A DNA stretch of 64,000 nt from a virus. Under the pieces are notes generated by a model. That model saw only the letters and a program-made list of their open reading frames with translations, was not told the origin of the DNA and did not search any database. Location: IMG/VR virus record IMGVR_UViG_3300045996_003052, positions 11,743-75,742 of that record. The stretch is one strand, 5' to 3'. Made by a program: the position numbers and the translations under genes. Shown here piece after piece: positions 37,970 to 64,000 of this stretch. Position 1 is the first letter of the stretch. Each line of letters begins with the position of its first letter.

Positions 37970-37982
37970 GCTGTCCTCCTAG

Positions 37983-39269: not shown

Positions 39270-39306
39270 TCACCTCCTTTCGTAACCTCCCACCTAAAGC
39301 GGGAAG

Positions 39307-39989: not shown

Positions 39990-40011
39990 GTCAGCTCTCC
40001 TTTTCCTACTG

Positions 40012-40530: not shown

Positions 40531-43500
40531 TCATGTCGCAACCCTTACCATGTCCCAGGCCGTCAAAATTATCTGCTCCTCACCAAGGTTTGGGTTGATG
40601 AGGTGCCGCAGAATGAGAACTTGTGACTCCGACGCAGGGCGCAAACTGTTCCAATGGTCTACAAGTATCCGATCGCCAAGTTCATCATGCAGCGCCGTTA
40701 AATCTTGAGACGGCATTGGTATAGAGTAATGAATAGGCGCTTTTCGGTAACAGCTAATAAAGTTTGACATCGCGGCTAGCGCTGTTGCAGGGTCCCTCGT
40801 ACAATACAGCTGTAACGTCTCCGTCGGTTCATAAACTCTTCGTTGACCTTGAGTTCCATGAGCTTGCTGCGACGGAATGTCCTCAACAGGCCCTTGGTCT
40901 AATACCCTAAACTGCCGTAGGTCTGTGTCCCAATCAAAGTCGTAATATAGCCGATTTACGCGTTGTGAAGGAACCGGTGTTCCTTGCGGTAACGATTCTA
41001 GGTTATAAGGGAACTTATAGAGTCGCCCGGTGGTTAACGAAGCAGTCGTATACGGTAGTACAGGGAATGGTTGACCGAAATGATTTACCCCCATCAATGC
41101 GCCAAACGTTGAAAAGAATCGGCGAATAAATTCGCGAAGCGTCATAGGCTCGTCAATGCACCAGGCGCCTAAAAAGCCAATATCGTTACCTATTAAAGTT
41201 TTAGAAATTTGTTGCGCGCGTTCGTACATTGTAGTTTGGAGCACTGGTCGACTATCTACGTATGTTTCAAGGGTGTGCATGTCCCCGCGCCGATAACCCT
41301 TGCCCCTATCCTTAAAAACGAACTCGTTAAAAAACAGTTGGAGCTGGTAGAAAGCTTGCGTAACTACCAAATTGTTCGTGCCGCGATAACCGCAAACGTT
41401 AAACGCAATCGTGACGGTTTCATCAATGTGGTGCTGCAGCCTAGGTCCCCGGATTAAAGCTGCGGTAAACCGAAACACCTCCCCATCCGAGTTTGCCTTC
41501 TCAATCCATGGGTTGGGAAACGGCCACTGCGGACTAGTCGGTAAAATGTACTCTACGCCTTCAAGGGACGGGTCCATTGGCGCCCGCGTCGGTTGTGCCT
41601 CAGGTGCCAGGTTTGAGGCATATGGGGTATCCTTAATCGTAACTTCACCAATGGACACCACGATCATCCCCCAATAATCATCAACGGTACCAGAAACGGC
41701 CGTTGACTCAATCGGCGGGCTATAGCTCTTCGCGTGGTCTACGTCTGTAGTAGTCGGCGTTGGCGCTGGTTTCGCGCCATCGTTATAGTACGCGCGGTCG
41801 GGTTGCGTAGTACCTTGTCCGTATCCGTAATACGATTCATCTAGCCAGCTGGTAGGTGGACTTGTGTATCGCCCCCACCAGCGAACTTTGTTTTCGTCAT
41901 TGGGTCCGGCGTCAAAATCGCACCGCATCTTTACGTAGTTACTCAAACCCAACGCAGCGTCTGTTGGGGCGTTCCGCACGACTAAAACGTCAGAAACGCG
42001 CGACTCGCCGTAAGGCGTAATGACGGACGCAAAAAAATACCTTGTTTGATCGCCTTCAGGGCCTACAAGTTCGTATTGAAGGTTACTGGGTGGTGGAACC
42101 ATGGGCGGTGGTGTTGGGTCAATCTCACCGCCACCACCGATGCGATACATCCCAGTATATTTCCCTGGAATCAAACCCTTATCTGCTCGCAAACCATCAG
42201 CTGACTTAGACCCTACGTCGTTATGTTCGCCTAAAACAATAGGGTAATATAGCACTGAATCTTCAGGTAAATTTTCGTGCTCGTCACCAATCGGGATCGC
42301 CAAGTCCCGCTCCAAGTTAAACGCGGAGAACTCAGAACCTATAATGTCGATGACCTCGAACGACACGATGCGTTCGTCGAGCAGCTGCGGGTGACCCGCT
42401 AAAATTCCCCTGAAGACCGTCCACGGTTCTAGGCCAGCCTCCAAGCCCTCGTCCGACAGCAGTAGGATGTCGCCCTCCCAGCCATCCCAGTACGACGTCT
42501 CCTCATCAGTCAGGAGTCCTCTGATAAGGCCGTCTTCGTCTGATACTACCACGGTTATCCTGGTGACCTCGAACGCGCCGTTCGGCGTGGAGAGCGCCCG
42601 ATCAATTTGCGAAATACTAATCAGGCGATCTTCCTTCCAGGAACCCGGCAGTGACTTGGGCTGGTACGACCACTCGAAAATGTCGGTACCAGCCGACATA
42701 GGGTTACGTTCAGCCCGTAATCTAAACCAGAAATTCGGACGTTTGGGGGTGGGCGGCGCTGATGGCGACGGTGAAGTGCTAGCTGATGGTGACACCGACG
42801 CAGATGGTGTTGGTGACGGCGACGGGGACCTTGACGGCGAAGCGCTAGCTGAGGGTGAGATCGACTGCGATGGCGAGACCGAGGGTGAAAGGCTAGGCGA
42901 TAACGAAGCGGAAGGCGACCTCGAGGGCGATGGTGACTCGGAGGCAGACGGCGACTGTGATGCTGAAGGTGAAGGAGTCGGCGATGGCGAAGCCGAGGGC
43001 GACAGGGAGGCTGACTGGGAGATGCTCGCGCTTGGCGATTGTGACGGCGACTGTGACGCTGAGGGCGACTTTGAGGCGCTTGGTGACTCAGACGCCGATG
43101 GCGATTCAGAGGCCGACGGAGAAAGAGACGGAGACGGCGTTGGCGATGGCGACGCAGAGGGCGATAAGGACGCCGAGGGTGAAGTAGACTTTGACGCAGA
43201 CGGCGACTTAGACGCCGAGGGCGACTTCGACGCGCTAGGAGACTTTGACGCCGACGTTGAAGGAGACTTTGACGCCGACGGTGACTTAGACGCGCTAGGA
43301 GAAATCGAGGGGGAAGAACTAGCTGACGGCGAAATTGATGCCGATGGTGAGCTACCAGAAATACCAGCTGCTACGTAGCCAACAAAGGCCGCGACACCAT
43401 CAGCGGTATCCGCTACTATAGTAAATCCGCCGCTATCAAACGATTGAAGGTCGTGTTCTGCGACAATTGCCGTAGCATCGTTTTGGTCAAGAAAGACAAC

Positions 43501-44562
43501 TACCTGGTCGTGCGATACGGCCGTTCCAGCCGTTACGTCGGCGGTGGCGTCGGCGTCAGAAGTAGCGTGGGCACCGCGTTGTGTCGTAGAACTAGCGGCC
43601 CCCATGCTCCATTCGTCAGTGGATGACGGCGTATCGCTAGCAGATTCCGCTCGGTGTGCGGAAACACAAAGCAATGCGTTAGGTTGAAACCCAAACCCCG
43701 AGGGTGCCGTCGTACCTCCGCCAGTAGTTGGAGTTGTAAAGTTACCAACTTTCCAATTTCCGCCTTTAATGGCAAGGTAAAGATACGGTCTATTTGTAAG
43801 CGTGCGTTCAGCGTAGTTTAGACGGAATCCGTTAACTAGCATCGACGTAATCGATGCCCGTACGTTTATTACGGAAACCGTTGAATTATGCATCGCGATC
43901 ACGCCGCCGGAGCGCATATACGATGCTGTATTCGCCGCCGCTACGTTGCCACCTTGGCTACCGCTCGCACAAACCCATTGGTTAAGTGCCCCGTCACAGG
44001 CACCTATCATCAACAGACCTGTACCTGTGGGGGCTGGAAGCGTGGCACTTGCAACGTTACCAGCTCCGAGTAGCAGCACTAAGTCGGGTTGAAAACCTGG
44101 GGCGGTAACGTCAACGTCACCAGTTGCCGCAGGTTCGAGGGTAATTCCGACAGCTAAGTTAGTGATGGCACCGGCTAAGGCGAGGTAGTGGATTCGCTGG
44201 TCCCTAGGAAACGCGTCGATAACTTCTAAGGTAAAGCCACCGGCATCAAACGATTTTAGGCGCGCGGAACCATCGATGGTAGTCGTGAAACTAACAGAAA
44301 CAACGCACCCTTCATCGGTCTGCGCGGCGTTTGAATCGGTAGCGGTATTGCCGTCATCAGAGTTTGAACAAATCGCGTAATTAGACCCAACCCCGATAGT
44401 CCAGCCGATATGTCGAAATATATCCTCACCGCCGACGGCGTCAGACGTTTCGGTACGGCCGGAAGACCAAAAAATTACGCAAGTCGGCTGAAATCCTAGA
44501 CCCGCGACGACAATGTCGCTTGTACCAGTGCCTGTATTGAACGACCCAACGCGGCTACTCAT
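40531..44562 (-). CDS. Tail tip/hub protein with an N-terminal adhesin-like domain and a ~200-aa Ser/Pro linker
   Basis: Three GFQP-containing repeats at the N-terminus; SPSAS tract at ~42758-43360; position downstream of the TMP. Confidence 0.75.
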   Translation of the reverse strand: MSSRVGSFNTGTGTSDIVVAGLGFQPTCVIFWSSGRTETSDAVGGEDIFRHIGWTIGVGSNYAICSNSDDGNTATDSNAAQTDEGCVVSVSFTTTIDGSARLKSFDAGGFTLEVIDAFPRDQRIHYLALAGAITNLAVGITLEPAATGDVDVTAPGFQPDLVLLLGAGNVASATLPAPTGTGLLMIGACDGALNQWVCASGSQGGNVAAANTASYMRSGGVIAMHNSTVSVINVRASITSMLVNGFRLNYAERTLTNRPYLYLAIKGGNWKVGNFTTPTTGGGTTAPSGFGFQPNALLCVSAHRAESASDTPSSTDEWSMGAASSTTQRGAHATSDADATADVTAGTAVSHDQVVVFLDQNDATAIVAEHDLQSFDSGGFTIVADTADGVAAFVGYVAAGISGSSPSASISPSASSSPSISPSASKSPSASKSPSTSASKSPSASKSPSASKSPSASKSTSPSASLSPSASPSPTPSPSLSPSASESPSASESPSASKSPSASQSPSQSPSASISQSASLSPSASPSPTPSPSASQSPSASESPSPSRSPSASLSPSLSPSVSPSQSISPSASASPSRSPSPSPTPSASVSPSASTSPSPSAPPTPKRPNFWFRLRAERNPMSAGTDIFEWSYQPKSLPGSWKEDRLISISQIDRALSTPNGAFEVTRITVVVSDEDGLIRGLLTDEETSYWDGWEGDILLLSDEGLEAGLEPWTVFRGILAGHPQLLDERIVSFEVIDIIGSEFSAFNLERDLAIPIGDEHENLPEDSVLYYPIVLGEHNDVGSKSADGLRADKGLIPGKYTGMYRIGGGGEIDPTPPPMVPPPSNLQYELVGPEGDQTRYFFASVITPYGESRVSDVLVVRNAPTDAALGLSNYVKMRCDFDAGPNDENKVRWWGRYTSPPTSWLDESYYGYGQGTTQPDRAYYNDGAKPAPTPTTTDVDHAKSYSPPIESTAVSGTVDDYWGMIVVSIGEVTIKDTPYASNLAPEAQPTRAPMDPSLEGVEYILPTSPQWPFPNPWIEKANSDGEVFRFTAALIRGPRLQHHIDETVTIAFNVCGYRGTNNLVVTQAFYQLQLFFNEFVFKDRGKGYRRGDMHTLETYVDSRPVLQTTMYERAQQISKTLIGNDIGFLGAWCIDEPMTLREFIRRFFSTFGALMGVNHFGQPFPVLPYTTASLTTGRLYKFPYNLESLPQGTPVPSQRVNRLYYDFDWDTDLRQFRVLDQGPVEDIPSQQAHGTQGQRRVYEPTETLQLYCTRDPATALAAMSNFISCYRKAPIHYSIPMPSQDLTALHDELGDRILVDHWNSLRPASESQVLILRHLINPNLGEEQIILTAWDMVRVAT

Positions 44563-45425
44563 GATATCCAGGACTCGGGATCAATGAGGTCGGGAGCCAT
44601 TGGTACTGTGCCCAGACCGTCACAAGTAGGGTACCAAGTAGGGTCGGTAGCGATTGGCAAATTTCCAACAACTCCGGTAGTATCATCGTCGCGTTTCGCT
44701 GCGTTCGTACCGTCGCTACAGCACTCCGTAGAACTAACTACCGTAGATTCAGGCAAGCTTGTAGTTGGAGCCGCTGAGGGTGACGCCGAGGACGACGGTG
44801 ACTTTGACGCTGACGGTGACTTTGACGCTGACGGTGATTTTGACGCCGAAGGGGACCGCGTTGGGGAAGGGGACGCCGACGGCGAACCTGATGCGGATGG
44901 CGACTTTGACGGCGATCCGCCAATCGACGCATACTCCCACTGCACGCGAACAGTAAACCCCTGAATTTGAAATGTTCGGTGGCTGCTGGAAAACAAGACG
45001 TTCCCGTTTATTACCTTTACGACGGTACCCCAACGGTAAGAAAAAACTTCTGCCCTAGTAAACGGTACTCCCGACCATGGGTTATAGTGCTGATACGGCG
45101 GCACCCATAGATAATTTAGGCGTCCGTAATCCTGACAAGAAATTTCATTATCGCCGTAACCCTCTCCCGCAACATCGACGCTTTCTGCGTCAACAGACAC
45201 CGTCGGTGCGAGGCAAAAGTTAGAAAAATTTACAGGAATGTACCCGGGAACAAAGGAGCCTGCGCAGAGCGTCATGCCAAGACCCGTAATAATGGCGTCG
45301 ACAGGAACGTCTCCGTAGTCAGGCAACGTATAGGTGACGTAGTCCCAGGTCTTGATCTCTTCCGGCGCCATTGTTTGCGAAGGAACTTCTACGCCAACGG
45401 CAACGGGGATGTCGGTAAAAGGCAT
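44559..45425 (-). CDS. Tail protein with Ser/Pro linker
   Basis: SPSASK repeats at ~44770-44920. Confidence 0.65.
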   Translation of the reverse strand: MPFTDIPVAVGVEVPSQTMAPEEIKTWDYVTYTLPDYGDVPVDAIITGLGMTLCAGSFVPGYIPVNFSNFCLAPTVSVDAESVDVAGEGYGDNEISCQDYGRLNYLWVPPYQHYNPWSGVPFTRAEVFSYRWGTVVKVINGNVLFSSSHRTFQIQGFTVRVQWEYASIGGSPSKSPSASGSPSASPSPTRSPSASKSPSASKSPSASKSPSSSASPSAAPTTSLPESTVVSSTECCSDGTNAAKRDDDTTGVVGNLPIATDPTWYPTCDGLGTVPMAPDLIDPESWIS

Positions 45426-46162
45426 TAGGCGTTATTCCACTCGATGCGGGCAAATTCTAGAAAGTTTAAGGTTATATCATAAGTTTCAGGATTCTGCTTC
45501 ACAAAGTCGAACCCAAGAAACTTAACAACGAAGCAGTCGTTTATCTCCAGGTCTGGCACAATGACTGAAGGTTTAACGCCGTTATAGGTCTGTTCCTCCC
45601 AAAGCTGAATAGCTTCATACTGCGCCTTAGTGACGGTAACGTCAAAGCTGTGGCGCCAACGGTTTTGTCGCGGGCTATAACCCGGCACGCTGCTCCAGCC
45701 CTGGGGAGAAGTCACGTGGTATTCTTTCACGCGACGGCCACCGGGCTTCGTACCACGCGTTAGTTCAAGCGCTTGGCCAGCAAACACCTCGCCAATAGTT
45801 ACGGGGTTGGAGTTTGCTGTGACTGAAAATACTAAGCTTGAAACTGCCGCCAGGGAGACTGATGTCCAAGGGTTTTTACAAATATTGTCTCCTCGCCGAT
45901 TAACTACGAGGTTAGCTGACACACCGCCGCTAACCGCGATAGTCTGGCCATTGTCAAGGTTACAGTTAGAAACTGCCACAAAATTAACGTTACCAGAACC
46001 GGTAACCGTCCACGCGTTAGTGCCGCTGGTCGCTCGCGCGGGTCGCCCGGGACGTCCGTCGGTTAACCAAGAGCGTTGGTGCTTTGGGTCAATGGTTCCG
46101 CCAGAAACTGTGGCATAAAGAGTAACCATGTTACCCGGTGGAAGGTACAGAAAGAGTGCCAT
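45425..46162 (-). CDS. Distal-tail-like protein
   Basis: Immediately after the TMP; ends YDITLNFLE. Confidence 0.55.
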   Translation of the reverse strand: MALFLYLPPGNMVTLYATVSGGTIDPKHQRSWLTDGRPGRPARATSGTNAWTVTGSGNVNFVAVSNCNLDNGQTIAVSGGVSANLVVNRRGDNICKNPWTSVSLAAVSSLVFSVTANSNPVTIGEVFAGQALELTRGTKPGGRRVKEYHVTSPQGWSSVPGYSPRQNRWRHSFDVTVTKAQYEAIQLWEEQTYNGVKPSVIVPDLEINDCFVVKFLGFDFVKQNPETYDITLNFLEFARIEWNNA

Positions 46163-49100
46163 TACCGCCGTACCCCGCGAACAAGCGACTCGAAGTGTTC
46201 GTAGGTTTTACCACCGTCATGCACCGCGCCAAGTACCCCAGGCGCAAGTTTCTTCTTAATCATCTCGATTTCTTCGCCCAGGGTAAAGGTCTTAATATTC
46301 ATATCACCGTTCCAAACCATCCCAGCGCCTTGAATTGCAGTCTGCCGCGCGATGCTGTCAGATTGTTCAAGTACCCTGTTAATACCTAGCTTATCCGCCG
46401 TAAACTCAGGGGCAAGTTCGGGCACGAGCTTCATGCGATTGATGAGGGAGTCCATGGCCAAGGAGCCATCCCTCGCGAACGCCAGCATATCTTTGCGTGA
46501 CTTATTTAACAGGGGTGACCATTCCTTTAGTCCACCTGGAGAGCTCCCAAAGGAAACCCCGTCAACCGCTGCCTGAGCATCCCTAGCGGCATCAACGGCG
46601 GCGTCTCCCCAGTCCTGCCACTGCCCCTCGGCACGGTCGAGGGCACCAGAGACATCCTTAACTTTGCGGTGCGCCTCCTCAGCGGCCTGGGCCGCTCTCT
46701 TGGCCTGAATCTCTGCCTCATTACCCATCTTCTTCCAAGCTTCAGGAAGATCGCCGCCAACCGCCTTAATAATGGCTCCAAGACCCTCCATCAGGATGTC
46801 GTTGGTCGTAATCTGCTTATCCTTTATGATGCCCTCCTCGCGGGCTTGGGCGATAAGCTTCGCGGTCTCGTCGTCGATCACCTCACCGCGTTCCTCGTGG
46901 GCGAGGATAACGGACTCAAGGAAGCCCTTCATCTGTTGGAGCGACTCACTCTCGGTAAAGCCGGCGGCCTTCAGCTTCGCGTAAGTCTCCAGGCCCTGGG
47001 CTTGGAGGTCAGCAAACCCTTCCGCGTCAAGCGCGCGGAGGTTAATGGACGCCACCAAGATGTCATTCAGGCCCTGGGCCTGCTCAAGCAGCGGGCGATT
47101 AATCTCAACCAGCTCACGCCAACGCTTCAGCTTATCAAATGCCTTGCTGCCATTCAGCCCGAGAATTTCCTGTACTTTTGCAAGCTTGTCAACCGAGGCA
47201 CCAATCGCGTCGATGGCCTCAACGGGAGATTTTCCTTCAGCGACCATCGCGTTGAAAGTGCGTAATGTGATTCGGTTAAGCCTGTCGAACTCAACTTGGC
47301 CCTCCTTAGCGATCTTATCAAGTTGCTCAGCCGCCTCTTTTTGCGTCTGCGACAAACCCTTAAATTGGTGTTGAAGGGTCTTAAGCTTCTCCTCAAGTTG
47401 AGAAAGATTCTCACGCTGCTTTCGCGTCAGCTCCCCGAGCTTGTCCTTATCTTTCAGGTCCTTTATCTCGGCCTCAAGCAGGAAGATTTCCTTCGTAAGC
47501 CCCTTAACGTAGTTTCCACCAGTCTTAAAGGCGTCTTCCCCGGCCTTACCAAACAAGCCACCCTCTAGGTTAGCATTGGCGGAGTTAGCCGCCTCGCCAA
47601 GCTTAATAATCTTATCAGCAAAACCGTCAATAACCTTAGTTGTGCCCCCAGCAAGTTTCGTCACCTGGGCATCGAGCAGGTCGGTAACCGCTTGGATCTC
47701 TAGGCCCTCGCGCTTTGTAAGGTCAATAAGCTCGCGGAACTGGCTGTTCCACATTCCGCCGGCCTTCTCAAAGGTCTTAGCGAGGTCAGGGATAACCTCG
47801 TTAAGGGACTTCGCCGCCTCCTCGGAGGTAATGATGCCGCGTTCAAGGAAAACAAATAGGTCGCGTGTTTTCGCAATCCACTTATTGACGTTGGCCGTAG
47901 TGACGCCGCCAGCTTCTTCAATAACCGCCTTAAGGTGTAACCCGGTAGCAGCCATTCGGTCGCCGAGACGTTTCGCGTCGGCTGTAATCTTATCGATCAA
48001 TCCATCGGAGAACGCTTGCCCGTACTCGCGGCCAAGGTCCGCGGCGACCTTCTTCTCCATCGACGGCCCAGTAAACAACCTCTTAATGCCCTTGGCAATG
48101 GGTCCAGCAAGCATACCAATGATGGGCCCAATAAGTGGAATCATGTTAAGCACGCCTCTAGCAATTCCACCTAGCAGTCCTGCTTTTGAAGCAATTCCAC
48201 CGCCCGCGGAGCCGCCTGTTAAGGCGTCGCTCATTTTCTTACCAAGGCCACCGCCCTCCATGCTAAATAATTTTGGTCCAAGAACGTTACCAATAGCCGC
48301 GCTGATGGTGTTCATTACGTTGCCGCCGCCGGAAAACGCACTGAGTAGCGCTTGCGGTAACGTTTTAGTGAGTTCCGTAATAGTAGAACCCCACGTACTT
48401 TTAACCTTATCAGTAGCAGCGACGTGGGCTCTACCAATTGCTGAAGCCGCCTCCATCCACTCTGTTTCAAAACCCTGAACCATAGGGCCAAGCTTAGCCA
48501 TGGCCTCTTCGTATTCAGTGTCAAGCAGCGCTAGCCGGTCTTCTCGGCCATTATCCATCAGCTTAAAGTACTTTTTATCAAATTCAGTCTTTAAGCTAAG
48601 CATTCTTTCCTGAACTTCACCCATCTTTGTGATATGGGCCTCGAGGTCCTCGTTGCCCTGCTTGATGTTCGCCAAAGTCTCGCGGTACGCGCGGAACGAG
48701 TCAGACCAAGACGCCACCATCGCCGGTACCTTCAAATTAAACGCGTGGGACCGGTCATTGGCGTCTTGGATGGCCGCACCGAATTCGCGCAGTACTTCTT
48801 CAAACGGAATATCCTTAGGTAAAAGTTGTAAAACGCGTTCAAGATTTTCAACGTTCTTAATGAACTTATCGCGTACAGGTAACGCCTTCTCCATGGCGTC
48901 AACCCAGCGGTTAATTGAGTCAGGAACAGCAGTACCAAATACCTGGGACCGATTGCTAACGTCGGTAATTGCGGCGCCGTATTCCTTAATAACGGTGGCA
49001 GCAGGTACCCCATTCTTTTCCGCCATTTCCAAGGCGGCGGCAAGTTCTGCAGTTTTCTTAAGCAGCGCGTCCCGCTGCTTGCTACCGGCCTCAAGCGTCT

Positions 49101-51216
49101 GGTTAAGCTCGTCTTCCGTGCTCTCCCACTTATGGAGCCCGGTTATGGTACCGTCTACCACGGTACTGTAGTCGGCCTGTTCCTTCTTAGCGCGCTCCAT
49201 GTTCTCACGAAGCTGCTTAAGGAACTGCCCAGTCTGATCAAGCGCATTAAACAACTTGCCTTGACCGTTAGCCCAGTCGATTGAAGTCTTTAGCGCCTGC
49301 TTATTCCGCTCAATGAGCCCGTCTTGGGTCATGATGAACAGCTCGGCGTCCGTCCTCATGTCCCGCCACATTCGGCGAGCGTTGCCAAATGAAAGTACTT
49401 CTCGCGCCGCGGCAAAGTCGCGGACGACTGCCGCCAACCCCTTAGACGTTTGCGAAAGAAGTAAGCTGAATTCGTTCCAGCCTTTCAGGACCCCCGCCAG
49501 CACTTGGAGGCTTACGCGGCCAAACGGAACTAAAGCCTCCGCGGCACGCACGGTAAAGATTGCTACATCCTCAATTAAGCCCACTATGCGGCTAATGTTA
49601 TCAGCGCTCGTCTTACCGAACGTCTGGGAAAATAAAGTACCGATGTGGAACAGTGCCTCGCGAAGCACAGGAGAAAGGTTAACGGCAAGCGCGAGTTTAT
49701 TTACCCAGTTCGTCCAGTGGACCTGCATGATTTGCATGCGGTCAGACAACGTGAGCGTAAAGTCGCCGAGGTTCTTAAGATGTTCCTCAATCTTCTTGAG
49801 CGACATCTCATAAAAGGCTTGCACGCGGTTTGCCGCGGTCATCGCCTCAACGGTCGTGTGGTGGGCCTTCGCCCACTCGCGGTTAGCCTCACCGACCTTA
49901 ACGATGATGCCGAGGTTGTCCAAGATGCGCGGAGACACACGGCCAAGGGCCAGGACGAGGTCGTCCATCGCACGCGGTGCCTCAATGCCCATGGCGCGGC
50001 CAAGCTTGATGGCCGCCTCACCAAGGAGTCCGAATTTCTCCGGCGTCACCTCGAGACCGAACAACATCGCGCGGTTGGCCTGCCGCATTAAGTCGAAGTC
50101 GGTAATAAGGCCGCGTGTCTTTTCCCGAGCAACCTCAATGGTACGGCCACCAAGCTGACCAATGGCGTTTTGGAGGCGGAAGAAGCCCTCGGAAATCATC
50201 TGCACCTTAGAGCCTTGGGCACCAAGCTCAATAACTGTGCTAATAATTCCGGTGACGCTATCCTTAATAAATCCGAGAGTCTTAACAACAGCCTGGGCGG
50301 CTAGGTCGGCTAGGGTAATTGCCCCAGTAAGCCTAAAGAAGGCCCGGTCAAAGAAGGCACCAGTTTTCGTAGCCTCCGTACCTATCTTACTTGTTTCAAC
50401 GGCTAGCTTCTTCGTCTCATCCGCAAGCTTTTGAAGTGCGGCTGGAGCTTGCTGTCCAAGAGCCTGATACTTCGCGACGGCTTCAGTAACGACCTGATTG
50501 ACTCGGCGCTGCTCGCTCTCGGTAAGTTTTGCCGCACTACCTACCCTAGCGACAGCCGCCGCCATGTTATTGGCAGCACTAATCGTTTTAGAACCGCTAA
50601 ACTCAGCGTAAAGTCTGTTAATTTCGCGTTGCGTCGCTGAAAGGCCTTGGGTCGCTTTCTGTAGCGCGATGAGCTGAGTAGGAGCGGTTCTTCCAAGCGC
50701 TTGGTACTTGGCAATTGCCTCGTTAACGGCGGCACTAACTGCGCGAGTATCAGCAGCGGTAAGCTTAGACGCGCCGCCGATCTCCCGAACAGCCTTGACG
50801 TAATTGAGAGCGTGGGTAATGGTCTTTGTACCACTTACCTGCTCAAGTTCCTTTGCATAGCTCTTAGTAGCGGCAGTAACCTGCCTTGTCGCCTCAAAAA
50901 GTTCCCTTAGCGCTTTTGGAGCCCGTTGACCTAGGGCGGCGTACTTAGCGAGTGCCTCTTCAAGAACGCGGTTGGCCTGGCGGGACTCGTCGGCGGTAAG
51001 CTTAGAGGCTCCGCCAACTTCTCGAATGGCCTGGATGATGGCTTGGGATTGCCGAATAATCCGGTCGCCAGAAAACTGGTTGTAGGCTTTATTGACGTTG
51101 GCGAAGGCCTGGGTAAACTCCGAAGCTACCTTAAGGTACTCATTACGAAGTTTGACAACTTCGCGAAGAGCCTGGGTAACTTCAGCAGTTATCCGGAGTG
51201 TAACTTCATCAGCCAA
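46162..51216 (-). CDS. Tape measure protein
   Basis: 1684 aa, helical and Ala-rich; LGRVSPRILDNLGI; follows the tail chaperones. Confidence 0.9.
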   Translation of the reverse strand: MADEVTLRITAEVTQALREVVKLRNEYLKVASEFTQAFANVNKAYNQFSGDRIIRQSQAIIQAIREVGGASKLTADESRQANRVLEEALAKYAALGQRAPKALRELFEATRQVTAATKSYAKELEQVSGTKTITHALNYVKAVREIGGASKLTAADTRAVSAAVNEAIAKYQALGRTAPTQLIALQKATQGLSATQREINRLYAEFSGSKTISAANNMAAAVARVGSAAKLTESEQRRVNQVVTEAVAKYQALGQQAPAALQKLADETKKLAVETSKIGTEATKTGAFFDRAFFRLTGAITLADLAAQAVVKTLGFIKDSVTGIISTVIELGAQGSKVQMISEGFFRLQNAIGQLGGRTIEVAREKTRGLITDFDLMRQANRAMLFGLEVTPEKFGLLGEAAIKLGRAMGIEAPRAMDDLVLALGRVSPRILDNLGIIVKVGEANREWAKAHHTTVEAMTAANRVQAFYEMSLKKIEEHLKNLGDFTLTLSDRMQIMQVHWTNWVNKLALAVNLSPVLREALFHIGTLFSQTFGKTSADNISRIVGLIEDVAIFTVRAAEALVPFGRVSLQVLAGVLKGWNEFSLLLSQTSKGLAAVVRDFAAAREVLSFGNARRMWRDMRTDAELFIMTQDGLIERNKQALKTSIDWANGQGKLFNALDQTGQFLKQLRENMERAKKEQADYSTVVDGTITGLHKWESTEDELNQTLEAGSKQRDALLKKTAELAAALEMAEKNGVPAATVIKEYGAAITDVSNRSQVFGTAVPDSINRWVDAMEKALPVRDKFIKNVENLERVLQLLPKDIPFEEVLREFGAAIQDANDRSHAFNLKVPAMVASWSDSFRAYRETLANIKQGNEDLEAHITKMGEVQERMLSLKTEFDKKYFKLMDNGREDRLALLDTEYEEAMAKLGPMVQGFETEWMEAASAIGRAHVAATDKVKSTWGSTITELTKTLPQALLSAFSGGGNVMNTISAAIGNVLGPKLFSMEGGGLGKKMSDALTGGSAGGGIASKAGLLGGIARGVLNMIPLIGPIIGMLAGPIAKGIKRLFTGPSMEKKVAADLGREYGQAFSDGLIDKITADAKRLGDRMAATGLHLKAVIEEAGGVTTANVNKWIAKTRDLFVFLERGIITSEEAAKSLNEVIPDLAKTFEKAGGMWNSQFRELIDLTKREGLEIQAVTDLLDAQVTKLAGGTTKVIDGFADKIIKLGEAANSANANLEGGLFGKAGEDAFKTGGNYVKGLTKEIFLLEAEIKDLKDKDKLGELTRKQRENLSQLEEKLKTLQHQFKGLSQTQKEAAEQLDKIAKEGQVEFDRLNRITLRTFNAMVAEGKSPVEAIDAIGASVDKLAKVQEILGLNGSKAFDKLKRWRELVEINRPLLEQAQGLNDILVASINLRALDAEGFADLQAQGLETYAKLKAAGFTESESLQQMKGFLESVILAHEERGEVIDDETAKLIAQAREEGIIKDKQITTNDILMEGLGAIIKAVGGDLPEAWKKMGNEAEIQAKRAAQAAEEAHRKVKDVSGALDRAEGQWQDWGDAAVDAARDAQAAVDGVSFGSSPGGLKEWSPLLNKSRKDMLAFARDGSLAMDSLINRMKLVPELAPEFTADKLGINRVLEQSDSIARQTAIQGAGMVWNGDMNIKTFTLGEEIEMIKKKLAPGVLGAVHDGGKTYEHFESLVRGVRR

Positions 51217-51234
51217 CTAAGGGGTCTGGGTACG

Positions 51235-51898: not shown

Positions 51899-51925
51899 GG
51901 TCTCGCCTCCAAGGCCTGTTTGAGT

Positions 51926-52621
51926 TTACGCCGACGGCGACACTGAAGCCGAAGGTGACTGGGACCCAGATGGTGATTGTGTTGCCGAGGATGAAGCTGA
52001 CGGCGACGGCGATGACACGCCAAACGTAGCCGCCGCCTTCTCACGACTTAGCTGAAAGATCTGATCGCCTCGGGTACGCGTCGTATCCGGCAGGCACTGG
52101 AACATGACGGCGTAGGTGCTGGGCGCGGTACGACTATAGGTCAGCGGCATCGCGTTAATGGAGATGCACTTGTACGCCACAAGAATCTCGTAGGCGCCGG
52201 CGATGTCGCGTCGAGCCGACGATAAGAAAATCGTCGTATAGAGAGGCGCGATGATGCTCCCGCCACCGCCACCAGTGAAGCCCAGGCGCGTCGCGTTGTT
52301 AACGCTCATGATGTTGTCGAACGTGTGCTTCATGAGGCTGTAATTCCGCTCCTCGGCAACAAACGCGAGGGTCGCGTTCTGTTGGGAAATGAACTTGTCA
52401 AGGATGCCCATGACCTGCTCGGCGAGAATGTCAGTTTTTTCCGACACCCAGGTAAAGGTCGACTCCCCCAGAGTCGCGCCAACGTGGACGCCGGAACTAG
52501 GGACGCCGTTAAGGTGCGGCATCCAAGTAGGTTCACCGCCTTCCACTACGGCGGTAGCCGGCGCGTCAACGTCCATGTAGATGTCTGCTGGACCAACGTG
52601 GATTTCATTGGGTTGTAACAT
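51926..52621 (-). CDS. Major tail tube protein with a Ser/Pro C-terminal tail
   Basis: IHVGPADIY...VGATLG; ends [29 protein letters not shown]. Confidence 0.75.
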   Translation of the reverse strand: MLQPNEIHVGPADIYMDVDAPATAVVEGGEPTWMPHLNGVPSSGVHVGATLGESTFTWVSEKTDILAEQVMGILDKFISQQNATLAFVAEERNYSLMKHTFDNIMSVNNATRLGFTGGGGGSIIAPLYTTIFLSSARRDIAGAYEILVAYKCISINAMPLTYSRTAPSTYAVMFQCLPDTTRTRGDQIFQLSREKAAATFGVSSPSPSASSSATQSPSGSQSPSASVSPSA

Positions 52622-53572: not shown

Positions 53573-53589
53573 ACCTAAAATCTTATAGC

Positions 53590-54054: not shown

Positions 54055-54059
54055 CTACC

Positions 54060-54509: not shown

Positions 54510-54518
54510 GCTTACCTC

Positions 54519-55439
54519 CTACGAAACCGCAGTTTTGATAAGGTACGCCAGCGTCGGCGCGACAAGCTTCTCCGCCGCAATTTCACGGACACGGAACACG
54601 TCGCAGTTTACCGGGACGTGCCTCCAACGGAAGGTGGCAAGGTCCTCGACGCGAAGCTGGTAGCCGAAGCTTGGCCTCTGGTCAGCGGGCCGTGGGTTGA
54701 TGTACGCCAGGATGACGTCCGTCCCCCACATATCGGCCATGACTTCCGTCTGACCAAGAGCTGCGCTATTGTAGAGCGATGCGCCGATGATCACCCGGTC
54801 GACGCTAAAGAGCGCTGCCAGACGCTGTGGTGTAAGCTGTTCACCATCAAGAAGCTCTGCTCGGATCACTGGGTTACGCCGAAGCGCCGCCCAAACGTCC
54901 CAGCCCATAACCACCGCATTTGGCGTGTAGCCAAACGACGCTTGGATAACAGCGTGCCCAGCGTCGATGTCACCAATCGGATCGCCGCCCGCGGCATCGT
55001 CCCAACGGTTTGCACCGGCAAGCGTGGTGTTTTGGGTGATGTTGGCCGTACTGCGAACAAGGTCAGCGACGCGTTTTTCACGAACGTTGAGCAGATTCTC
55101 CGTCAGGATCTCGACGGTCGTTGTGTCGAGGTTGACGTTGCTCGGTGCCGCCCGACGCTCGCGGTCGTCAATGCGCATCTCCAAGCCGTATTCTTCAGCG
55201 TGGTAGCTCGCCTTGGTGAGCGTCCAGTCGATTTCCTTGTACTGCTTCTTTGGGCGGCGGTGGGCGTCAGGAATATTGAACGCCTCCTTGCCGAAGACAG
55301 AGTACTGCCCATCTTCTTGTGACACCGACAACGCCGGCATGACAAGGTCAGCGATCCTATTTTCTACCCTGAAGGCCAAGGCGATGCTGGTAAGCAGCTG
55401 GTCTTGGCGTACTGACGCGAGATCTTGAAGCTGAGGCAT
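54519..55439 (-). CDS. Major capsid protein (gpE-like)
   Basis: DQLLTSIA...IADLVMP, REKRVADL, W.D...DPIGDI...PN, PSFGY, AYLIKTAV. Confidence 0.85.
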   Translation of the reverse strand: MPQLQDLASVRQDQLLTSIALAFRVENRIADLVMPALSVSQEDGQYSVFGKEAFNIPDAHRRPKKQYKEIDWTLTKASYHAEEYGLEMRIDDRERRAAPSNVNLDTTTVEILTENLLNVREKRVADLVRSTANITQNTTLAGANRWDDAAGGDPIGDIDAGHAVIQASFGYTPNAVVMGWDVWAALRRNPVIRAELLDGEQLTPQRLAALFSVDRVIIGASLYNSAALGQTEVMADMWGTDVILAYINPRPADQRPSFGYQLRVEDLATFRWRHVPVNCDVFRVREIAAEKLVAPTLAYLIKTAVS

Positions 55440-55465
55440 TGACGCCCCTCCTTAAATGTAAAGTT

Positions 55466-55852: not shown

Positions 55853-55878
55853 TGTATCCCTCTCTTTTTAGAATGAAC

Positions 55879-57210: not shown

Positions 57211-57217
57211 GTTCTAC

Positions 57218-57246
57218 ATAGTAGGGCCTAGTAGCTAGGTTGTACA
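57218..57246 (-). promoter_or_regulatory. Late promoter (TGTACAACC class), leaderless to the protease GTG
   Basis: TGTACA-17-TACTAT with GTG 7 nt downstream. Confidence 0.65.
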
Positions 57247-57257
57247 GTCGTAAAATA

Positions 57258-57482
57258 TTACGGCTTGTCTTTTTTTAGCTTTTCAGCTTGCGGCGTACCT
57301 TTAAGGTAGCGCTCGAGACTCTCTTCAGTTACTCGACGCATCCCGCCTATCTTTACGGTTTCAAGCGCACCTAAGGCCATGTGGTTACGCACGGTCACGA
57401 TAGAACATTCAGCATAAGCTGCCACATCGTACAATGTGTACAGCTTGCCAAAGCGCCGTTCTAGCTCAGCTTTTCGCGACAT
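57258..57482 (-). CDS. Excisionase-like HTH DNA-binding protein
   Basis: LYTLYDVAAYAECSIVTVRN...GALETVKIGGMRRV...L..YL. Confidence 0.8.
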   Translation of the reverse strand: MSRKAELERRFGKLYTLYDVAAYAECSIVTVRNHMALGALETVKIGGMRRVTEESLERYLKGTPQAEKLKKDKP

Positions 57483-57732
57483 AGATACTTGGTGCCTCTA
57501 CGTTAAGTAAAACTTTAGGGAACGTATCGCCTACCTGCCACTGAAACGCCCCAAGAAAAATTTTACTTTGGCACTGCGGGCATGTTGCCAGCCCCTTCAT
57601 CCCCGGAATGTACGGCAAAGATATTGGGTGAGGGTTACCACAACCGCACATAAATACGACGTGGGCCAAGAAGCCGTAGATTGTCGACTCCTTGGCAACT
57701 CCAACTTTTGGAAATTCTTTAAGGTCAGCCAT
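57466..57732 (-). CDS. Zinc-finger protein
   Basis: CGCG...CPQC. Confidence 0.6.
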   Translation of the reverse strand: MADLKEFPKVGVAKESTIYGFLAHVVFMCGCGNPHPISLPYIPGMKGLATCPQCQSKIFLGAFQWQVGDTFPKVLLNVEAPSIYVAKS

Positions 57733-58448
57733 TAGACCGGCACCACCTTCTGCTCAACCGCCGCGCAGGCCTCGCCCTGCTCCATTATAAGGCGTTCCAG
57801 GTCATCGCGACGAATGCGAAAACGCCCTTTTACGCCCCAATCTTCATCCCAAGAATTTTGGCCATAGACAACACCACCAGGACGCGCTGTATCATTCCAA
57901 CCAGTCGTCTTTACGCAGTGACCGCCTTCCACGATGCCGCTGACCTTAATATACCCCTCGGAATCCGGTTCAAACATACCGGTATACCAATTAACTCCTA
58001 GTACCACCGTACCAAAATTAGAAAGATGCCACGCTCGAACATCTTCAACCCCCTCAGCCCAGAGGTAACTCTTAACGCGGCCGGTCTTCTGAAGATGCTT
58101 AGCGCCCGCCCGTACCGAGGTACCAAATTGGCGTTCGGTATCGTTATCGTTTTCAGACCACTCGTCGTCCTTTATAAATTGGTCATACAGGTACATCGGG
58201 TCCATGTCGGCTGTAGGCTTAATCATCAAGGGGGCTCCCTGTGACCAAGCCGCCCACCCATGACCCACGCAAGTACCAGTATTACCTTGGTCGAGGACTG
58301 GACCGGACCTGTAATGGCGAGTTCCTGGCGGCAAACCACGCGGAAAAAATTGTTCCCTCAGCGGATCCAACATTAACCGCATCGGAAAATTCTTATCACG
58401 CGCGTCAGGAGCAAACCGTCGACCTAAACCTTTACCTTCGAATGACAT
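57732..58448 (-). CDS. Papain-like (C1) cysteine protease
   Basis: LDQGNTGTCVG, GGHCV, QNSWDEDWG. Confidence 0.85.
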   Translation of the reverse strand: MSFEGKGLGRRFAPDARDKNFPMRLMLDPLREQFFPRGLPPGTRHYRSGPVLDQGNTGTCVGHGWAAWSQGAPLMIKPTADMDPMYLYDQFIKDDEWSENDNDTERQFGTSVRAGAKHLQKTGRVKSYLWAEGVEDVRAWHLSNFGTVVLGVNWYTGMFEPDSEGYIKVSGIVEGGHCVKTTGWNDTARPGGVVYGQNSWDEDWGVKGRFRIRRDDLERLIMEQGEACAAVEQKVVPV

Positions 58449-58450
58449 GT

Positions 58451-59917: not shown

Positions 59918-59925
59918 TTAGCTCC

Positions 59926-61551
59926 TTAAAAGACCCAGCCATGTGCGTCGGGACCGCGCATCTCACCGCCCGACATCATACTAGTAAAGTCTACGACGGC
60001 ACTAGGCCGCTCATGAAACCATAGAAGCCCTTGGCTCAAAGCATCGACCTGGTCCTTAAATTCGCCGCGTGGGAAAGAATCATGCTCGGCAATCAGCTCC
60101 TCTACCCACGGGTAGGCAGGCACCAGGTCACCGTTACTATTCAATTTACCCGGTAGCTTAACGTTTCCAGCTGCTATCAGGTAAGACGTCGCGGCGGCCT
60201 TCGACTCCTTACCGCCGTCAGATTTCCTGGCAATGATGCCCGAAATTTCGCGCTGCAGCGTCTGGATGACGGCAATACCGTTTGCCTTATCCTCGATTAG
60301 GATCGCGCCAACCCATGGAAACAACTCGCGAGTCATGCGGATTGCTTGAAGCGTTTCAGGGAACTGCATACGTTTTCGGTAACGGTGAATGACGTAGATG
60401 TCTGGACCTAGGCGCGCGAGAACGAACCCGACAACGTAGGAACTCGTCGTCAGGTCCTTAAACGCGCAGTCCCAGGTTTGACATGAGTCTCCCTGAGTCT
60501 GAATCTCCGAAGGCAATTCTGTATAAAATCGCCACCAGGAAGAGTCAAAGAGCCCGCCGTCTTTTGGCATCGGCCGCTGCTGCTGCTGGCCGGCGTATAC
60601 GTACGGACCGTTGCGTAACTTGATGACTTCAACCTGCTCGGGTCCAAACCGGTTAGGCGCGAGAAGCTCGCCCTCAACTACCCGCGGGTCCTCGAAAACC
60701 TTCTCTACCTTCTCCACCTTGAATTCCACCTGGCCAGTCTCAGGGTCCTCAACGTAGCGGTACTCATTTTTGAAGAAGAACGTACGGCATTTTCTAACTT
60801 CTTCAAATTCAGTAGGTAGGTAGAGGTGCACCCAGCCGGCGTCGCCAGCGTGGCGTGCCACGCCTTCCTTGCGTAGCAGGTGGCCGGAGAGGTCAAGCTC
60901 GTTAAGCCGTTGCATGATAACGACCCGGACGCCAGTTTTGGGATCGTTAACGCGGCTCGCCAACACATCGTCCCAAAAATCTCGAACTGTCTCTAAGGCG
61001 TTTTGGTTGTCAGCATCTTCTAGTTTCGTAGGATCGTCGACGACCAATCGGTCGCCACCCTCACCCGTGATGCCCGCCTGAGGGGTGCCGGTCATTCGGC
61101 AACCACCCTCCGTATTTTCATAATATGACTTGACGTTTTGGTCGGTTGAGAACTTAAACTTATGGCCCCAATTTTGTTGAAACCAATCCGACATAATGAT
61201 GCGTCTGGCCTTAACAGCCTGGGAGGTGACGAGAGCCTTACCATAGCTTACAAACAAACCCCTTAGGTGGGGGCTGGTCAACCACTCCCAGGTAGGCCAA
61301 AAGACGCTGACTGTCAGCGACTTCATATGCCTAGGGGGAATATTAATTAGAAGGTTCTGAATGTGCCCCTCACTGCACGCCATCAAGTGGTCGGCGATTG
61401 CGTCGATATGCCACCCAGAGACAAATGGAACGTTAGGCACCGCGTACGGCCACGCTAGCGGAATAAACTTTCTAAGGTTACGCTCAACTTCGCGAGTCTC
61501 AACTTCGCGGGTCAAGCGCTCTAGTTCTTGTAGGCTGGCAAGGTCTACCAT
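59926..61551 (-). CDS. terL: Terminase large subunit
   Basis: INIPPRHMKS, VVDDP, IMQRL...D, WDCAFK, IEDKANG, DQVDA. Confidence 0.95.
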   Translation of the reverse strand: MVDLASLQELERLTREVETREVERNLRKFIPLAWPYAVPNVPFVSGWHIDAIADHLMACSEGHIQNLLINIPPRHMKSLTVSVFWPTWEWLTSPHLRGLFVSYGKALVTSQAVKARRIIMSDWFQQNWGHKFKFSTDQNVKSYYENTEGGCRMTGTPQAGITGEGGDRLVVDDPTKLEDADNQNALETVRDFWDDVLASRVNDPKTGVRVVIMQRLNELDLSGHLLRKEGVARHAGDAGWVHLYLPTEFEEVRKCRTFFFKNEYRYVEDPETGQVEFKVEKVEKVFEDPRVVEGELLAPNRFGPEQVEVIKLRNGPYVYAGQQQQRPMPKDGGLFDSSWWRFYTELPSEIQTQGDSCQTWDCAFKDLTTSSYVVGFVLARLGPDIYVIHRYRKRMQFPETLQAIRMTRELFPWVGAILIEDKANGIAVIQTLQREISGIIARKSDGGKESKAAATSYLIAAGNVKLPGKLNSNGDLVPAYPWVEELIAEHDSFPRGEFKDQVDALSQGLLWFHERPSAVVDFTSMMSGGEMRGPDAHGWVF

Positions 61552-61552
61552 A

Positions 61553-61717
61553 CTAGAACTTCTTCTTATACACTTCGGGTTGAGGGCGCGGTTTTGGCAC
61601 TGGCCCCTTGATGTGCTTCAGCGGCTGCTCGCGTCGCTCATCGGGTTTTTTCATCTCGCCGATGTCTTCCTTGTCCCGCTCTTCTTCCAACGGATAACCG
61701 TAGTAATTTTCAGTCAT
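61553..61717 (-). CDS. Small charged hypothetical protein (54 aa)
   Basis: ATGA overlap with the upstream gene; ends 2 nt before terL. Confidence 0.5.
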   Translation of the reverse strand: MTENYYGYPLEEERDKEDIGEMKKPDERREQPLKHIKGPVPKPRPQPEVYKKKF

Positions 61718-62001
61718 TGATGTGCCATGATAATTTCAATAGTCGCGTCTTGAATTTGTCCAGCAGACGTCGTAATCCGGTTGATGACGTCATACCTCGC
61801 GCCGTCAGTTCCACTAGTCAACCAAATAGTCGTCTTGTAACTAGTAGCCCCCGCGTCTAGCTGGGTTAACCCCGTTGGCACCACCCACACGCTATTACTA
61901 ATTACCTCACCGGGACTCTGGCTAGCTAGCCACCTAGTCCAGTCAATGGTATACTTTCGTTTTGAGTCTGGATCTTTGTACCGTGTCCCAACCGCCATCA
62001 A
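61714..62001 (-). CDS. Fibre-adaptor-like small virion protein
   Basis: KDPD...YTIDW..WL...ISNSVW...T.IWL.SGT.G..Y.V.NRITT. Confidence 0.65.
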
Positions 62002-64000
62002 TGCTCCTTGCCGTAACCAACCGGCACGACAATTTCACCTAATTCAGCTGCGACATAGAAAAGCAGTTGGTCTGGAGGCATTATAAACTCAAGGCTGTCT
62101 GCTTGTACAACAAAAATTTCACCGAAACCTCCAGGCTCTAAGTCAAGTTCTGGTGACGGGCTGACCGAGGCAGACGGAGAAATTGACCCTGATACTGACG
62201 CGGATGGTGAAACAGACGCCGACTCACTTGCAGATGGGCTAATTGAGGCCGAAACGCTCGCCGAGGGGCTAAACGATGGTGATTCTGACGCAGATGGTGA
62301 GATAGATGCTGAGGGCGAAACGCTTGGCGACTCACTGGCACTCGGTGAAACGCTTGGAGATTCACTCTCGCTAGGTGAGATTGATGGCGATTCAGACGCT
62401 GAAGGTGAAGCTGAAGCGCTAGGTGAAACGCTTGGCGATTCAGACGCTGAAGGTGAAGCTGAAGCTGACGGACTAACTGATGGCGACACCGAGGCGCTAG
62501 GTGATTCACTAGCGCTTGGACTGACTGATGGTGAAACGGAGGCGCTTGGCGAAACGCTAGCTGACGGACTTACTGATGGGGATGGCGATGACGATGGCGA
62601 AACGCTAGCTGATGGACTTACCGATGGCGAAACGGAGGCGCTTGGCGAAACGCTAGCTGACGGACTTACTGATGGTGATACTGACGCCGACGGACTCTTA
62701 GAGGCCGACGGACTTACTGATGCTGAAACTGACGCCGAAGGCGATTTAGACGCCGAAGGCGACTTAGACGCTGACGGCGATTTAGACGCTGACGGCGAAA
62801 CTGACGGTGATGGCGAGGCTGACGGAGACTTTGATGCCGAGGGCGACTTCGATGGCGATTCGCCAGCAGACGGCGACAGGCTAGAGCTAGGACTTTTAGA
62901 AGCAGATGGACTTATAGAAGGCGACTCAGAGCTAGACGGTGACTTACTAGCTGAGGGAGAAATTGAAGGGGACTCCGAAGAACTTGGCGATAGCGAGGCC
63001 GACGGGCTAATCGACGGCGACTCAGAACTAGACGGCGAGACTGAAGCACTCGGGGAAATTGAAGGAGATTCTGAAGAACTTGGCGAAACGCTTGCCGACG
63101 GTGACACAGACGGGCTGACGCTCGCTGACGGACTAATCGACGCCGAGGGTGAAACGCTGGGCGACGCCGAGCTACTCGGACTAACTGAAGCGCTAGGTGA
63201 TTTTGAAGCGCTCGGGCTGACTGAAGGTGATTCGCTCGCGCTCGGGGAGACACTCGCACTCGGCGACACACTCGGGCTGACAGAGGCCGACGGCGACACA
63301 CTTGCGCTGGGGCTAACGCTCGGCGACTCTGATGCTGACGGCGATTTCGAGGCCGATGGGCTGACGCTGGGCGACTCACTACTACTTGGCGAGACGCTCG
63401 CGCTCGGACTAACTGAGGGCGAGACAGAGGCTGACGGGCTAACCGAAGCACTTGGCGACTTGCTAGCCGACGGCGACACGCTCGGAGACTCGCTACTCGA
63501 TGGCGATTTGCTCGCCGATGGGCTAACGCTCGGCGACTCGCTCGCGGATGGCGAGACTGACGCCGACGGCGATGTGCTGGCGCTCGGACTGACAGACGGT
63601 GATTCACTCGACGACGGCGACACGCTGGCGGACGGCGACACCGACGGGCTAACGGAACTGCTCGGCGAGACGCTGGCGCTGGGGCTGACGCTCGGCGATT
63701 CCGAACTCGATGGCGAGACCGAGGCGCTTGGACTGACGCTGGGCGACTCACTACTGCTCGGCGAAACGCTCGCGCTGGGGCTAATCGACGGCGACTCCGA
63801 TGTCGAGGGACTAACGCTGGCACTCGGCGAGACGCTCGCCGATGGCGACACAGAGGGCGACTCGCTACTCGACGGCGATTTGCTGGCGCTCGGACTAACA
63901 CTCGGAGACTCGCTTGCGGATGGCGACACGGACGCCGACGGCGATTTGCTAGCCGACGGGCTAATACTCGGCGACTCCGATGCCGACGGACTGACTGACG
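61998..64000 (-). CDS. Giant Ser/Pro-repeat (mucin-like) virion fibre protein; 5' end lies beyond the window
   Basis: The frame stays open to position 64000; more than 600 aa of SPS[ASV]S[VEK] repeats, then a short hydrophobic/acidic C-terminal domain next to the adaptor gene. Confidence 0.8.

Follow-up and report, generated by a model that had tools for sequence, protein, structure and literature searches.

We analyzed a stretch of 64,000 nucleotides (nt), hereafter the window, which comprises positions 11743-75742 of the 75,742-bp IMG/VR virus record IMGVR_UViG_3300045996_003052. This phage genome encodes several late proteins with long tracts rich in serine and proline, as well as two glycosyltransferases and a methyltransferase that lie just beyond the window. 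Here we describe the tracts, the enzymes, the linkage of the two across phages and the way in which tracts are added to proteins. We propose that the tracts are probably acceptors for O-glycosylation by the phage's own enzymes.

Tracts and enzymes in the phage genome

The first and last 127 nt of the record are identical, and no other 127-mer is repeated. The assembly is therefore circularly closed, with a length of 75,615 bp. The record is classed as having direct terminal repeats, and its completeness according to CheckV is 100%. Early genes occupy the plus strand (window ~360-36800). The minus strand carries lysis, tail, head and packaging genes from ~37100 to the end of the window, and these continue across the contig junction to contig position 11716. 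In what follows, coordinates with the prefix L001 use the numbering of this phage's full contig, and the others are window positions. The proteins with tracts, measured in amino acids (aa), and the associated enzymes are:

40531..44562, minus strand: g080, tail-tip (central-fibre-like) protein, 1343 aa, assigned by homologues, synteny and Atlas
42727..43377, minus strand: Ser/Pro tract of g080, aa 396-612 (217 aa, 99 Ser), from the translation
44559..45425, minus strand: g081, 288 aa, assigned a virion role by position only
44730..44936, minus strand: Ser/Pro tract of g081, aa 164-232, from the translation
51926..52621, minus strand: g085, tail tube (major tail) protein, 231 aa, assigned by AlphaFold2 (AF2) model, Foldseek and gene position
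51929..52027, minus strand: C-terminal Ser tail of g085, aa 199-231 (33 aa, 15 Ser), from the translation
61998..64000 and on to L001:3-1100, minus strand: g100, fibre-like protein, 991 aa (C-terminal 666 aa in the window), an in-frame open reading frame (ORF) across the junction
62145..64000, minus strand: in-window part of the main Ser/Pro tract of g100, from the translation
L001:1923-3617, minus strand: further tract protein, 564 aa, outside the window
L001:5603-7252, minus strand: g107, GT2-family glycosyltransferase, 549 aa, by PF00535
L001:7998-8648, minus strand: Methyltransf_24 enzyme (Pfam), between g107 and g115
L001:10240-11217, minus strand: g115, GT2-family glycosyltransferase, 325 aa, by PF00535
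L001:11435-11716, minus strand: further tract protein, 93 aa, consisting of a short helix and a tract, outside the window

An earlier first-pass annotation of the window had described four proteins with tracts. All four tracts are present on minus-strand ORFs, and the coordinates agree to within ~30 nt, but the genome has six in total, because two more lie outside the window. All six proteins are encoded on the late, structural strand, and none of the early-strand ORFs has a tract. The six tracts sum to 1336 residues, of which 48% are Ser, 19% Pro, 11% Ala, 7% Val and 1.6% Thr. Serines occur at positions i and i+2 nearly throughout (364 of 383 Ser in g100). The tracts had been called mucin-like. 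They are indeed Ser/Pro-rich, but their Ser-x grammar, almost without Thr, is nearer to that of bacterial serine-rich repeats than to Thr-rich mucin repeats.

At the DNA level the tracts are diverse. All six Ser codons are used, with an entropy of 2.40 bits in the tracts versus 2.56 bits in the rest of the genome. Tandem Repeats Finder detected only short patches in tract DNA (period 18, 48 or 96 nt, 70-95% match), and contig-wide only ~20 31-mers repeat besides the 127-nt terminal overlap. Together, the codon entropy, the tandem repeat results and the k-mers suggest that the repeats are old, or that their DNA has diversified while the peptide grammar was kept. This agrees with the earlier proposal, made from the mixed Ser codons, that selection acts on the peptide and that recent slippage is not responsible. 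The diversity of the DNA also makes a collapse of the tracts during assembly unlikely.

Tracts as additions to tail and fibre proteins

The AF2 model of the tail tube protein g085 (predicted local distance difference test, pLDDT, 72.6) has siphophage tail tube proteins as its top Foldseek matches in the Protein Data Bank (PDB), with E-values down to 6e-7. The gene is located between connector genes and the genes for a chaperone and the tape measure. The Ser tail has a pLDDT below 50 and is predicted to be disordered. Homologues of g085 are 57-85% identical, and the core of all of them ends in ...QFSREK. This sequence is followed by one of three states: nothing (proteins of 177-193 aa), a Ser tail of ~20-40 aa (212-234 aa) or a globular domain of ~70 aa (261-265 aa). 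The three states suggest that the tube C-terminus is a display site, and that the Ser tail is one interchangeable cargo. The globular domain, which occurs in homologues P0009, P0021, P0028 and P0033, has a conserved W..GQ..VL.D...HW pattern. Scans with the tube alignment found one IMG/VR locus and five short metagenome loci, and the tube core has no match among GenBank phages by tblastn.

The tail-tip protein g080 consists of an N-terminal region (aa 1-395), the tract and a core (aa 613-1343). An exhaustive HMMER search of 1.84 billion representatives found 277 homologues of the core. These are mostly 714-790 aa long and align from residue ~10, which indicates that the 395-aa N-terminal domain and the tract are an add-on. 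A word-indexed search with the core gave 0 matches, probably because its relatives were crowded out by other candidates. Among 150 other representatives of this family, a Ser tract is present in only 2, at the C-terminus. The nearest Atlas clusters of the core are viral, some of them with Phage-tail_3, which we regard as a lead only. The location of g080, two genes after the tape-measure gene, agrees with a role at the tail tip. We also observed that aa 1-395 comprise three tandem repeats of ~130 aa, each with a GFQP motif. The Atlas neighbours of this region are viral hypothetical proteins and, at low score, DUF7483.

The neighbouring protein g081 has an N-terminal domain, a tract and a C-terminal domain of 56 aa. 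Its gene lies between a gene in the distal-tail position and the tail-tip gene, and we found no match to g081 in Pfam or PHROG.

The longest tract occurs in g100. This protein has an N-terminal domain (aa 1-165), a tract (aa 166-240), a basic insert (aa 241-281), a second tract (aa 282-943) and 48 C-terminal residues. The two tracts amount to 737 aa, with a longest single run of 662 aa. The N-terminal domain is predicted to be a jelly-roll (pLDDT 83), and its fold matches generic beta-sandwiches only. Its homologues are found at the N-terminal end of proteins of 798-1598 aa, in which other repeats or a ConA-like domain occur and a Ser tract does not. In view of these tract-free homologues, g100 looks like a fibre whose shaft has been replaced by a tract. 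A scan for further loci with an alignment of the N-terminal domain found none. The insert that splits the tract (L001:~258-380, minus strand) is 41 aa long, basic, aromatic-rich and in frame. A double frameshift was considered as its origin and ruled out, since the repeat continues in no other frame.

Thus, the three states of the tube family, the tract-free core of the tail-tip family and the tract-free homologues of the fibre N-terminal domain all show tracts to be additions at termini and domain junctions. The first-pass annotation had also taken the four tract proteins to be virion proteins. This assignment is well supported for the tail tube protein (by fold) and for the tail-tip protein (by synteny, homologue family and the Atlas lead), but the 288-aa and 991-aa proteins are placed by position and architecture.

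Two glycosyltransferases beside the structural genes

In the first-pass annotation, no glycosyltransferase was visible in the window, so that host enzymes or genes beyond 64 kb would be needed. The former statement is correct, and genes of this kind do exist: the only two PF00535 matches in the genome, g107 and g115, are both encoded on the same strand, on the far side of the contig junction at which the window ends. Together with the methyltransferase, they are ~4-10 kb past window position 64000. Their block, which is on the late strand and also encodes three tract proteins, immediately precedes the terminase and head-tail genes.

Neither transferase has a hydrophobic segment (maximum Kyte-Doolittle values, KD(19), of 0.97 and 0.78) or a Pfam lectin domain. 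Their sole sequence matches in the PDB are polypeptide N-acetylgalactosamine (GalNAc) transferases, with E = 1e-4 and 2e-3. In these alignments, the DxH motif is matched (LDAHCS and LDAHCM versus LDSHCE and LDCHCE of GalNAc-T2 and T4). The region of the Gal/GalNAc-T motif (WGGENxE...) is aligned as well but is degenerate, reading WGQMGVEIS in g107, in matches whose E-values are only 1e-4 and 2e-3. NCBIfam yielded only sub-threshold GT2 matches for the transferases, and PF00534, which represents GT-B enzymes, has no match across the genome. With g107 as a tblastn query, there was no match at E <= 1e-3 in 50,697 GenBank phage genomes, mycobacteriophages included.

Some other properties of this block can be noted. 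Directly downstream of g107 is a gene for a 339-aa protein with BACON and Big_13 domains (L001:4587-5606, minus strand). Its N-terminus resembles a signal peptide, so that it looks secreted, unlike the neighbouring products. The best match of the methyltransferase in GenBank phages is an O-methyltransferase of Lokiarchaeota virus WyrdV1 (40% identity), followed by Synechococcus phage genes. The protein g111 (296 aa, L001:8641-9531, minus strand) is common to three other transferase loci (L019, L132 and L137). It has a non-significant hint of similarity (E = 0.022) to a GT-B glycosyltransferase, and could possibly be a third transferase.

Co-occurrence of tracts and transferases

A scan of IMG/VR with g107 identified 63 viral loci, to which we added 32 loci from metagenome-assembled genomes (MAGs), giving 95 in total. 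Ser tracts are present in 57 of the 63 viral loci, and in 50 of them a tract of at least 60 aa lies within 10 kb. The tracts nearly always follow the SPSxS / SxSxS grammar and are on the strand of the transferase. As a control, we used 59 loci (781 kb) fetched with the terminase of this phage. These contain no tract of at least 60 aa and no transferase homologue (50/63 versus 0/59, Fisher p = 2.7e-22). The co-occurrence of tracts and glycosyltransferases, which had been suggested as a check on the first-pass annotation, is therefore positive. Among the MAG loci with a transferase, 16 of 32 have tracts of at least 60 aa. When viral and MAG loci are pooled, the nearest long tract is at a median of 1.8 kb from the transferase, and 71 of the 95 loci have at least two transferase catalytic domains.

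We compared the whole proteome of the phage with the 95 loci, and only g107, g115 and the methyltransferase are widely common. The methyltransferase occurs in 43 of the 63 viral and 24 of the 32 MAG loci. The head and tail genes of this phage are not common to the transferase loci, and a phmmer search with all domains that flank tracts found no shared domains among the ORFs of these loci. Elsewhere, tracts are carried by proteins that match baseplate wedge, tail fibre and virion structural PHROGs, by a Phage-tail_3 protein and by a beta-helix protein. ConA-like lectin domains occur in 13 of 65 tract carriers.

One distant phage (L002) has a capsid protein that is 30% identical to the one studied here. 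Its cassette is located between the portal and capsid genes, and a 393-aa protein, placed where a tube protein would be expected, has a Ser tail at its end. PHROG and hhalign did not confirm that this protein is a tube, as only the tract aligned. The cassette of L002 (L002:5349-11635, plus strand) has two copies of the methyltransferase, and a separate upstream ORF encodes the C-terminal domain of its large transferase. As for the MAG loci (L124-L155), many are binned as Patescibacteria (Woesebacteria, Paceibacterota, Saccharibacteria, Levybacteria) or as "uncultured Gammaproteobacteria", and their GC content is 38-48%, versus 54% in this phage.

A proposed phage-encoded glycosylation module

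In our proposal, a cytoplasmic O-glycosylation module encoded by the phage uses the tracts as acceptor tags, and we put the probability of this reading at roughly 0.65. According to this proposal, g107 and g115, as soluble GT-A enzymes with a DxH motif, would be made late in infection together with the methyltransferase, which would use S-adenosylmethionine, and with the tract proteins. The enzymes would recognize the (Ser-x)n / SPSxSx tract itself, and not the folded domain to which it is attached. Either ahead of assembly or in its course, serines of the tract would receive sugars drawn from the nucleotide-sugar pools of the host, and these sugars may be capped by the methyltransferase. In the resulting particle, short glycosylated tails would project from the C-termini of the tail tube subunits, a glyco-tether of 217 aa would hold the 395-aa domain of the tail-tip protein, and a glycosylated Ser/Pro thread would form the shaft of the fibre-like proteins. 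Candidate roles for such a coat are the stiffening of tethers and their protection from proteases, shielding, and adhesion.

Three further proteins are relevant to where a coat would be located, or adjoin a tract protein:

46162..51216, minus strand: g083, presumed tape-measure protein, 1684 aa, by size and position
54519..55439, minus strand: g090, major capsid protein, 306 aa, by phrog_1005 (E = 7e-74)
61714..62001, minus strand: g099, 95 aa, an ORF directly downstream of g100

The capsid protein g090 has no (S-x)n run, no Ser tract and no C-terminal extension that could be an acceptor. Any coat would therefore be mainly on the tail and fibres. Tape-measure proteins correspond to ~0.15 nm of tail length per residue, so the 1684 residues of g083 suggest a tail of ~250 nm. 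With several hundred tube subunits and 15 serines in the Ser tail of each, it would offer thousands of potential sites. The tape-measure protein itself is homologous to proteins in the syntenic loci L156 and L157, and has no tract. In L043 and L010, phage loci that are otherwise unrelated, homologues of g099 likewise come after the large tract protein.

Several points weigh against the proposal. The enzymes resemble polypeptide transferases only weakly (E = 1e-4 and 2e-3), over no more than part of the catalytic domain. Six of the 63 viral transferase loci have no tract in the DNA examined. Because neither host nor phage lineage was matched in the control loci, common descent or a common habitat could explain some of the association. 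That g081, g100 and the 564-aa and 93-aa proteins are located in the virion is something that we infer. The same applies to sugar attachment, sugar identity and the purpose of a coat. Lastly, DNA may, formally, be the target of the transferases. The O-glycosylated virion envisaged in the first-pass annotation is thus supported as a candidate, by the transferases and by their co-occurrence with tracts, but the glycan itself has been deduced rather than seen.

The alternative that survives best, which we nonetheless regard as unlikely, is that the tracts are unmodified flexible spacers, i.e., domain tethers or entropic bristles, and that the transferases act on hydroxymethylated phage DNA or on glycans of the host envelope. 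The tracts are indeed placed at domain junctions and termini, as spacers would be. Moreover, polyserine linkers without known modification join the domains of bacterial carbohydrate-active enzymes (Teredinibacter genome, PMC2699552). Spacers of this kind do not account well for the fact that a tract adjoins the transferase in 50 of 63 viral loci whose genes are otherwise unrelated, and in none of the 59 controls. With regard to DNA as a substrate, none of the 95 transferase loci has a nearby homologue of this phage's DNA-metabolism genes, and the transferases are encoded in the late structural block, not in the early DNA block. In addition, the only solved relatives of the transferases glycosylate polypeptides.

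It is also conceivable, but quite improbable, that host enzymes glycosylate the tracts, and that the phage transferases have no part in this or only elongate or decorate a glycan started by the host. General O-glycosylation systems of bacteria, of the PglL/PilO and Pmt types, accept Ser/Pro-rich low-complexity regions, and relatives of the transferases are found on MAG contigs binned with Patescibacteria and other bacteria. However, the known general systems are extracytoplasmic, whereas tailed-phage particles are assembled in the cytoplasm. The phage also has two soluble transferases of its own, and the transferase-tract pair moves with a phage module across varied backbones.

Finally, we can practically dismiss the idea that the >600-aa tract, or its length, is an assembly artefact: although the contig starts and ends inside the tract, with the circle-closing 127-nt overlap within it, and short-read assemblers can mis-join repeats, the overlap is the sole repeated 127-mer (with only ~20 other repeated 31-mers), the junction is in frame and yields a single 991-aa ORF with distinct N- and C-terminal domains, the genome is rated fully complete by CheckV, and comparable tracts of 300-1000 aa occur in independent assemblies (L003, L011, L030 and L130).

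Comparison with known systems

To our knowledge, experimental evidence of phage virion glycosylation is documented only for a few mycobacteriophages. Both the capsid and the tail tube subunits of mycobacteriophages (Che8, Corndog and Myrna) bear glycans at their C-terminal ends (Freeman 2023, as cited in PMC12619734). Within their structural operon, phages of Cluster O, which have the Corndog cassette, encode an O-methyltransferase and glycosyltransferases (PMC4351075). The phage described here is similar in that its own transferases and methyltransferase are within the structural gene block, and in that its tail tube subunit has a C-terminal extension as one candidate acceptor. Also, the L002 cassette, between the portal and capsid-protease genes, is placed like that of Corndog. 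By contrast, the transferase has no tblastn match to mycobacteriophage genomes, and the capsid protein has no extension. The long (Ser-x)n tracts, of up to 662 aa per run, are found on tail-tip and fibre-like proteins as well, and the hosts are uncultivated.

The tracts also resemble bacterial glycoproteins. Gram-positive serine-rich repeat glycoproteins such as GspB, Fap1 and SraP are glycosylated in the cytoplasm by the soluble enzymes GtfA/GtfB. As in those proteins, Ser occupies every second residue over hundreds of residues, and soluble cytoplasmic enzymes are what we propose here. Unlike those systems, the phage has no GtfA/B-type GT-B enzyme and no accessory Sec, and its carriers have no signal peptide or LPXTG motif. 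The phage tracts are Pro-rich (19%), and the carriers are phage tail proteins.

A third comparison is with the eukaryotic polypeptide GalNAc-transferases of CAZy family GT27 (PDB 2FFU, 2D7I and 5NQA), the only solved matches of the phage enzymes, with which they share the DxH motif and to which they align over part of the Gal/GalNAc-T region, where the motif is degenerate. As in the mucin-type system, the candidate acceptors are Ser/Pro-rich low-complexity tracts. The phage enzymes differ in having neither a ricin-type lectin domain nor a membrane anchor, and the tracts differ in being almost free of Thr.

The polyserine linkers of Saccharophagus and Teredinibacter (PMC2699552) are, like the phage tracts, long Ser-rich spacers between domains with mixed Ser codons. 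They consist mostly of consecutive serines, in secreted enzymes with no dedicated transferase nearby. The phage tracts, by contrast, have Pro, Ala or Val between successive serines, and they are accompanied by a pair of transferases.

Siphophage tail tubes can carry display domains, for example the C-terminal Ig-like domain of lambda gpV. The g085 family similarly has the tube C-terminus as an outward display site, with the ~70-aa globular domain as an alternative cargo. Unlike gpV, g085 itself displays a disordered Ser tract and not a folded domain. Literature searches for SPSAS with phage, for GT27 with phage and for polyserine linkers found no description of a phage tract-transferase pairing.

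Other features of the genome

The head region has no megablast match among GenBank phages, and a search of IMG/VR for relatives of the capsid protein found none. Within the head module, a gene for a 238-aa protein (window 57732-58448, minus strand) lies between the portal gene and the genes for a Mu-like protease and scaffold. The protein matches the papain-family Peptidase_C1 (E = 2.4e-5, above the cut-off). Such a gene is unusual in a head module, and it is absent from the syntenic relative L156.

A probable lysis block occupies window positions 37110-40506 on the minus strand. It encodes a protein with a lipoprotein signal (37110-37571), small membrane proteins (37583-37969 and 39849-39989), and proteins of 428 aa and 181 aa without a family match.

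Implications

A broader version of the proposal, which we advance tentatively since it goes somewhat short of even odds in our estimation, is that the tract, the paired GT-A enzymes and the methyltransferase constitute a portable "glyco-tag". If the enzymes read the tract alone, then appending a tract would make any virion protein a glycoprotein. Horizontal transfer may have carried the system into many uncultivated phages that are not related to each other, those of Patescibacteria possibly among them. The system could then represent a widespread, undescribed route of glycosylation, whose enzymes might be the nearest relatives in prokaryotic viruses of the animal transferases that initiate mucin glycosylation.

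The candidate system differs from that of mycobacteriophages in having another enzyme family and a much more extreme acceptor, and it recurs, beside structural genes that are not related to one another, in no fewer than 63 viral contigs and 32 from MAGs. If the proposal is true, glycosylated virions would be common among environmental phages, as a modular trait. With a glycan brush on a tail of ~250 nm, adsorption, stability, and recognition by immune systems or predators would be affected. Simple test systems are available: the two soluble enzymes with the 93-aa protein as a mini-substrate, or the full-length and tail-less forms of the tail tube protein. The enzymes could serve to make mucin-like glycopolymers in bacteria, and they may bear on the origin of GT27-type polypeptide transferases.

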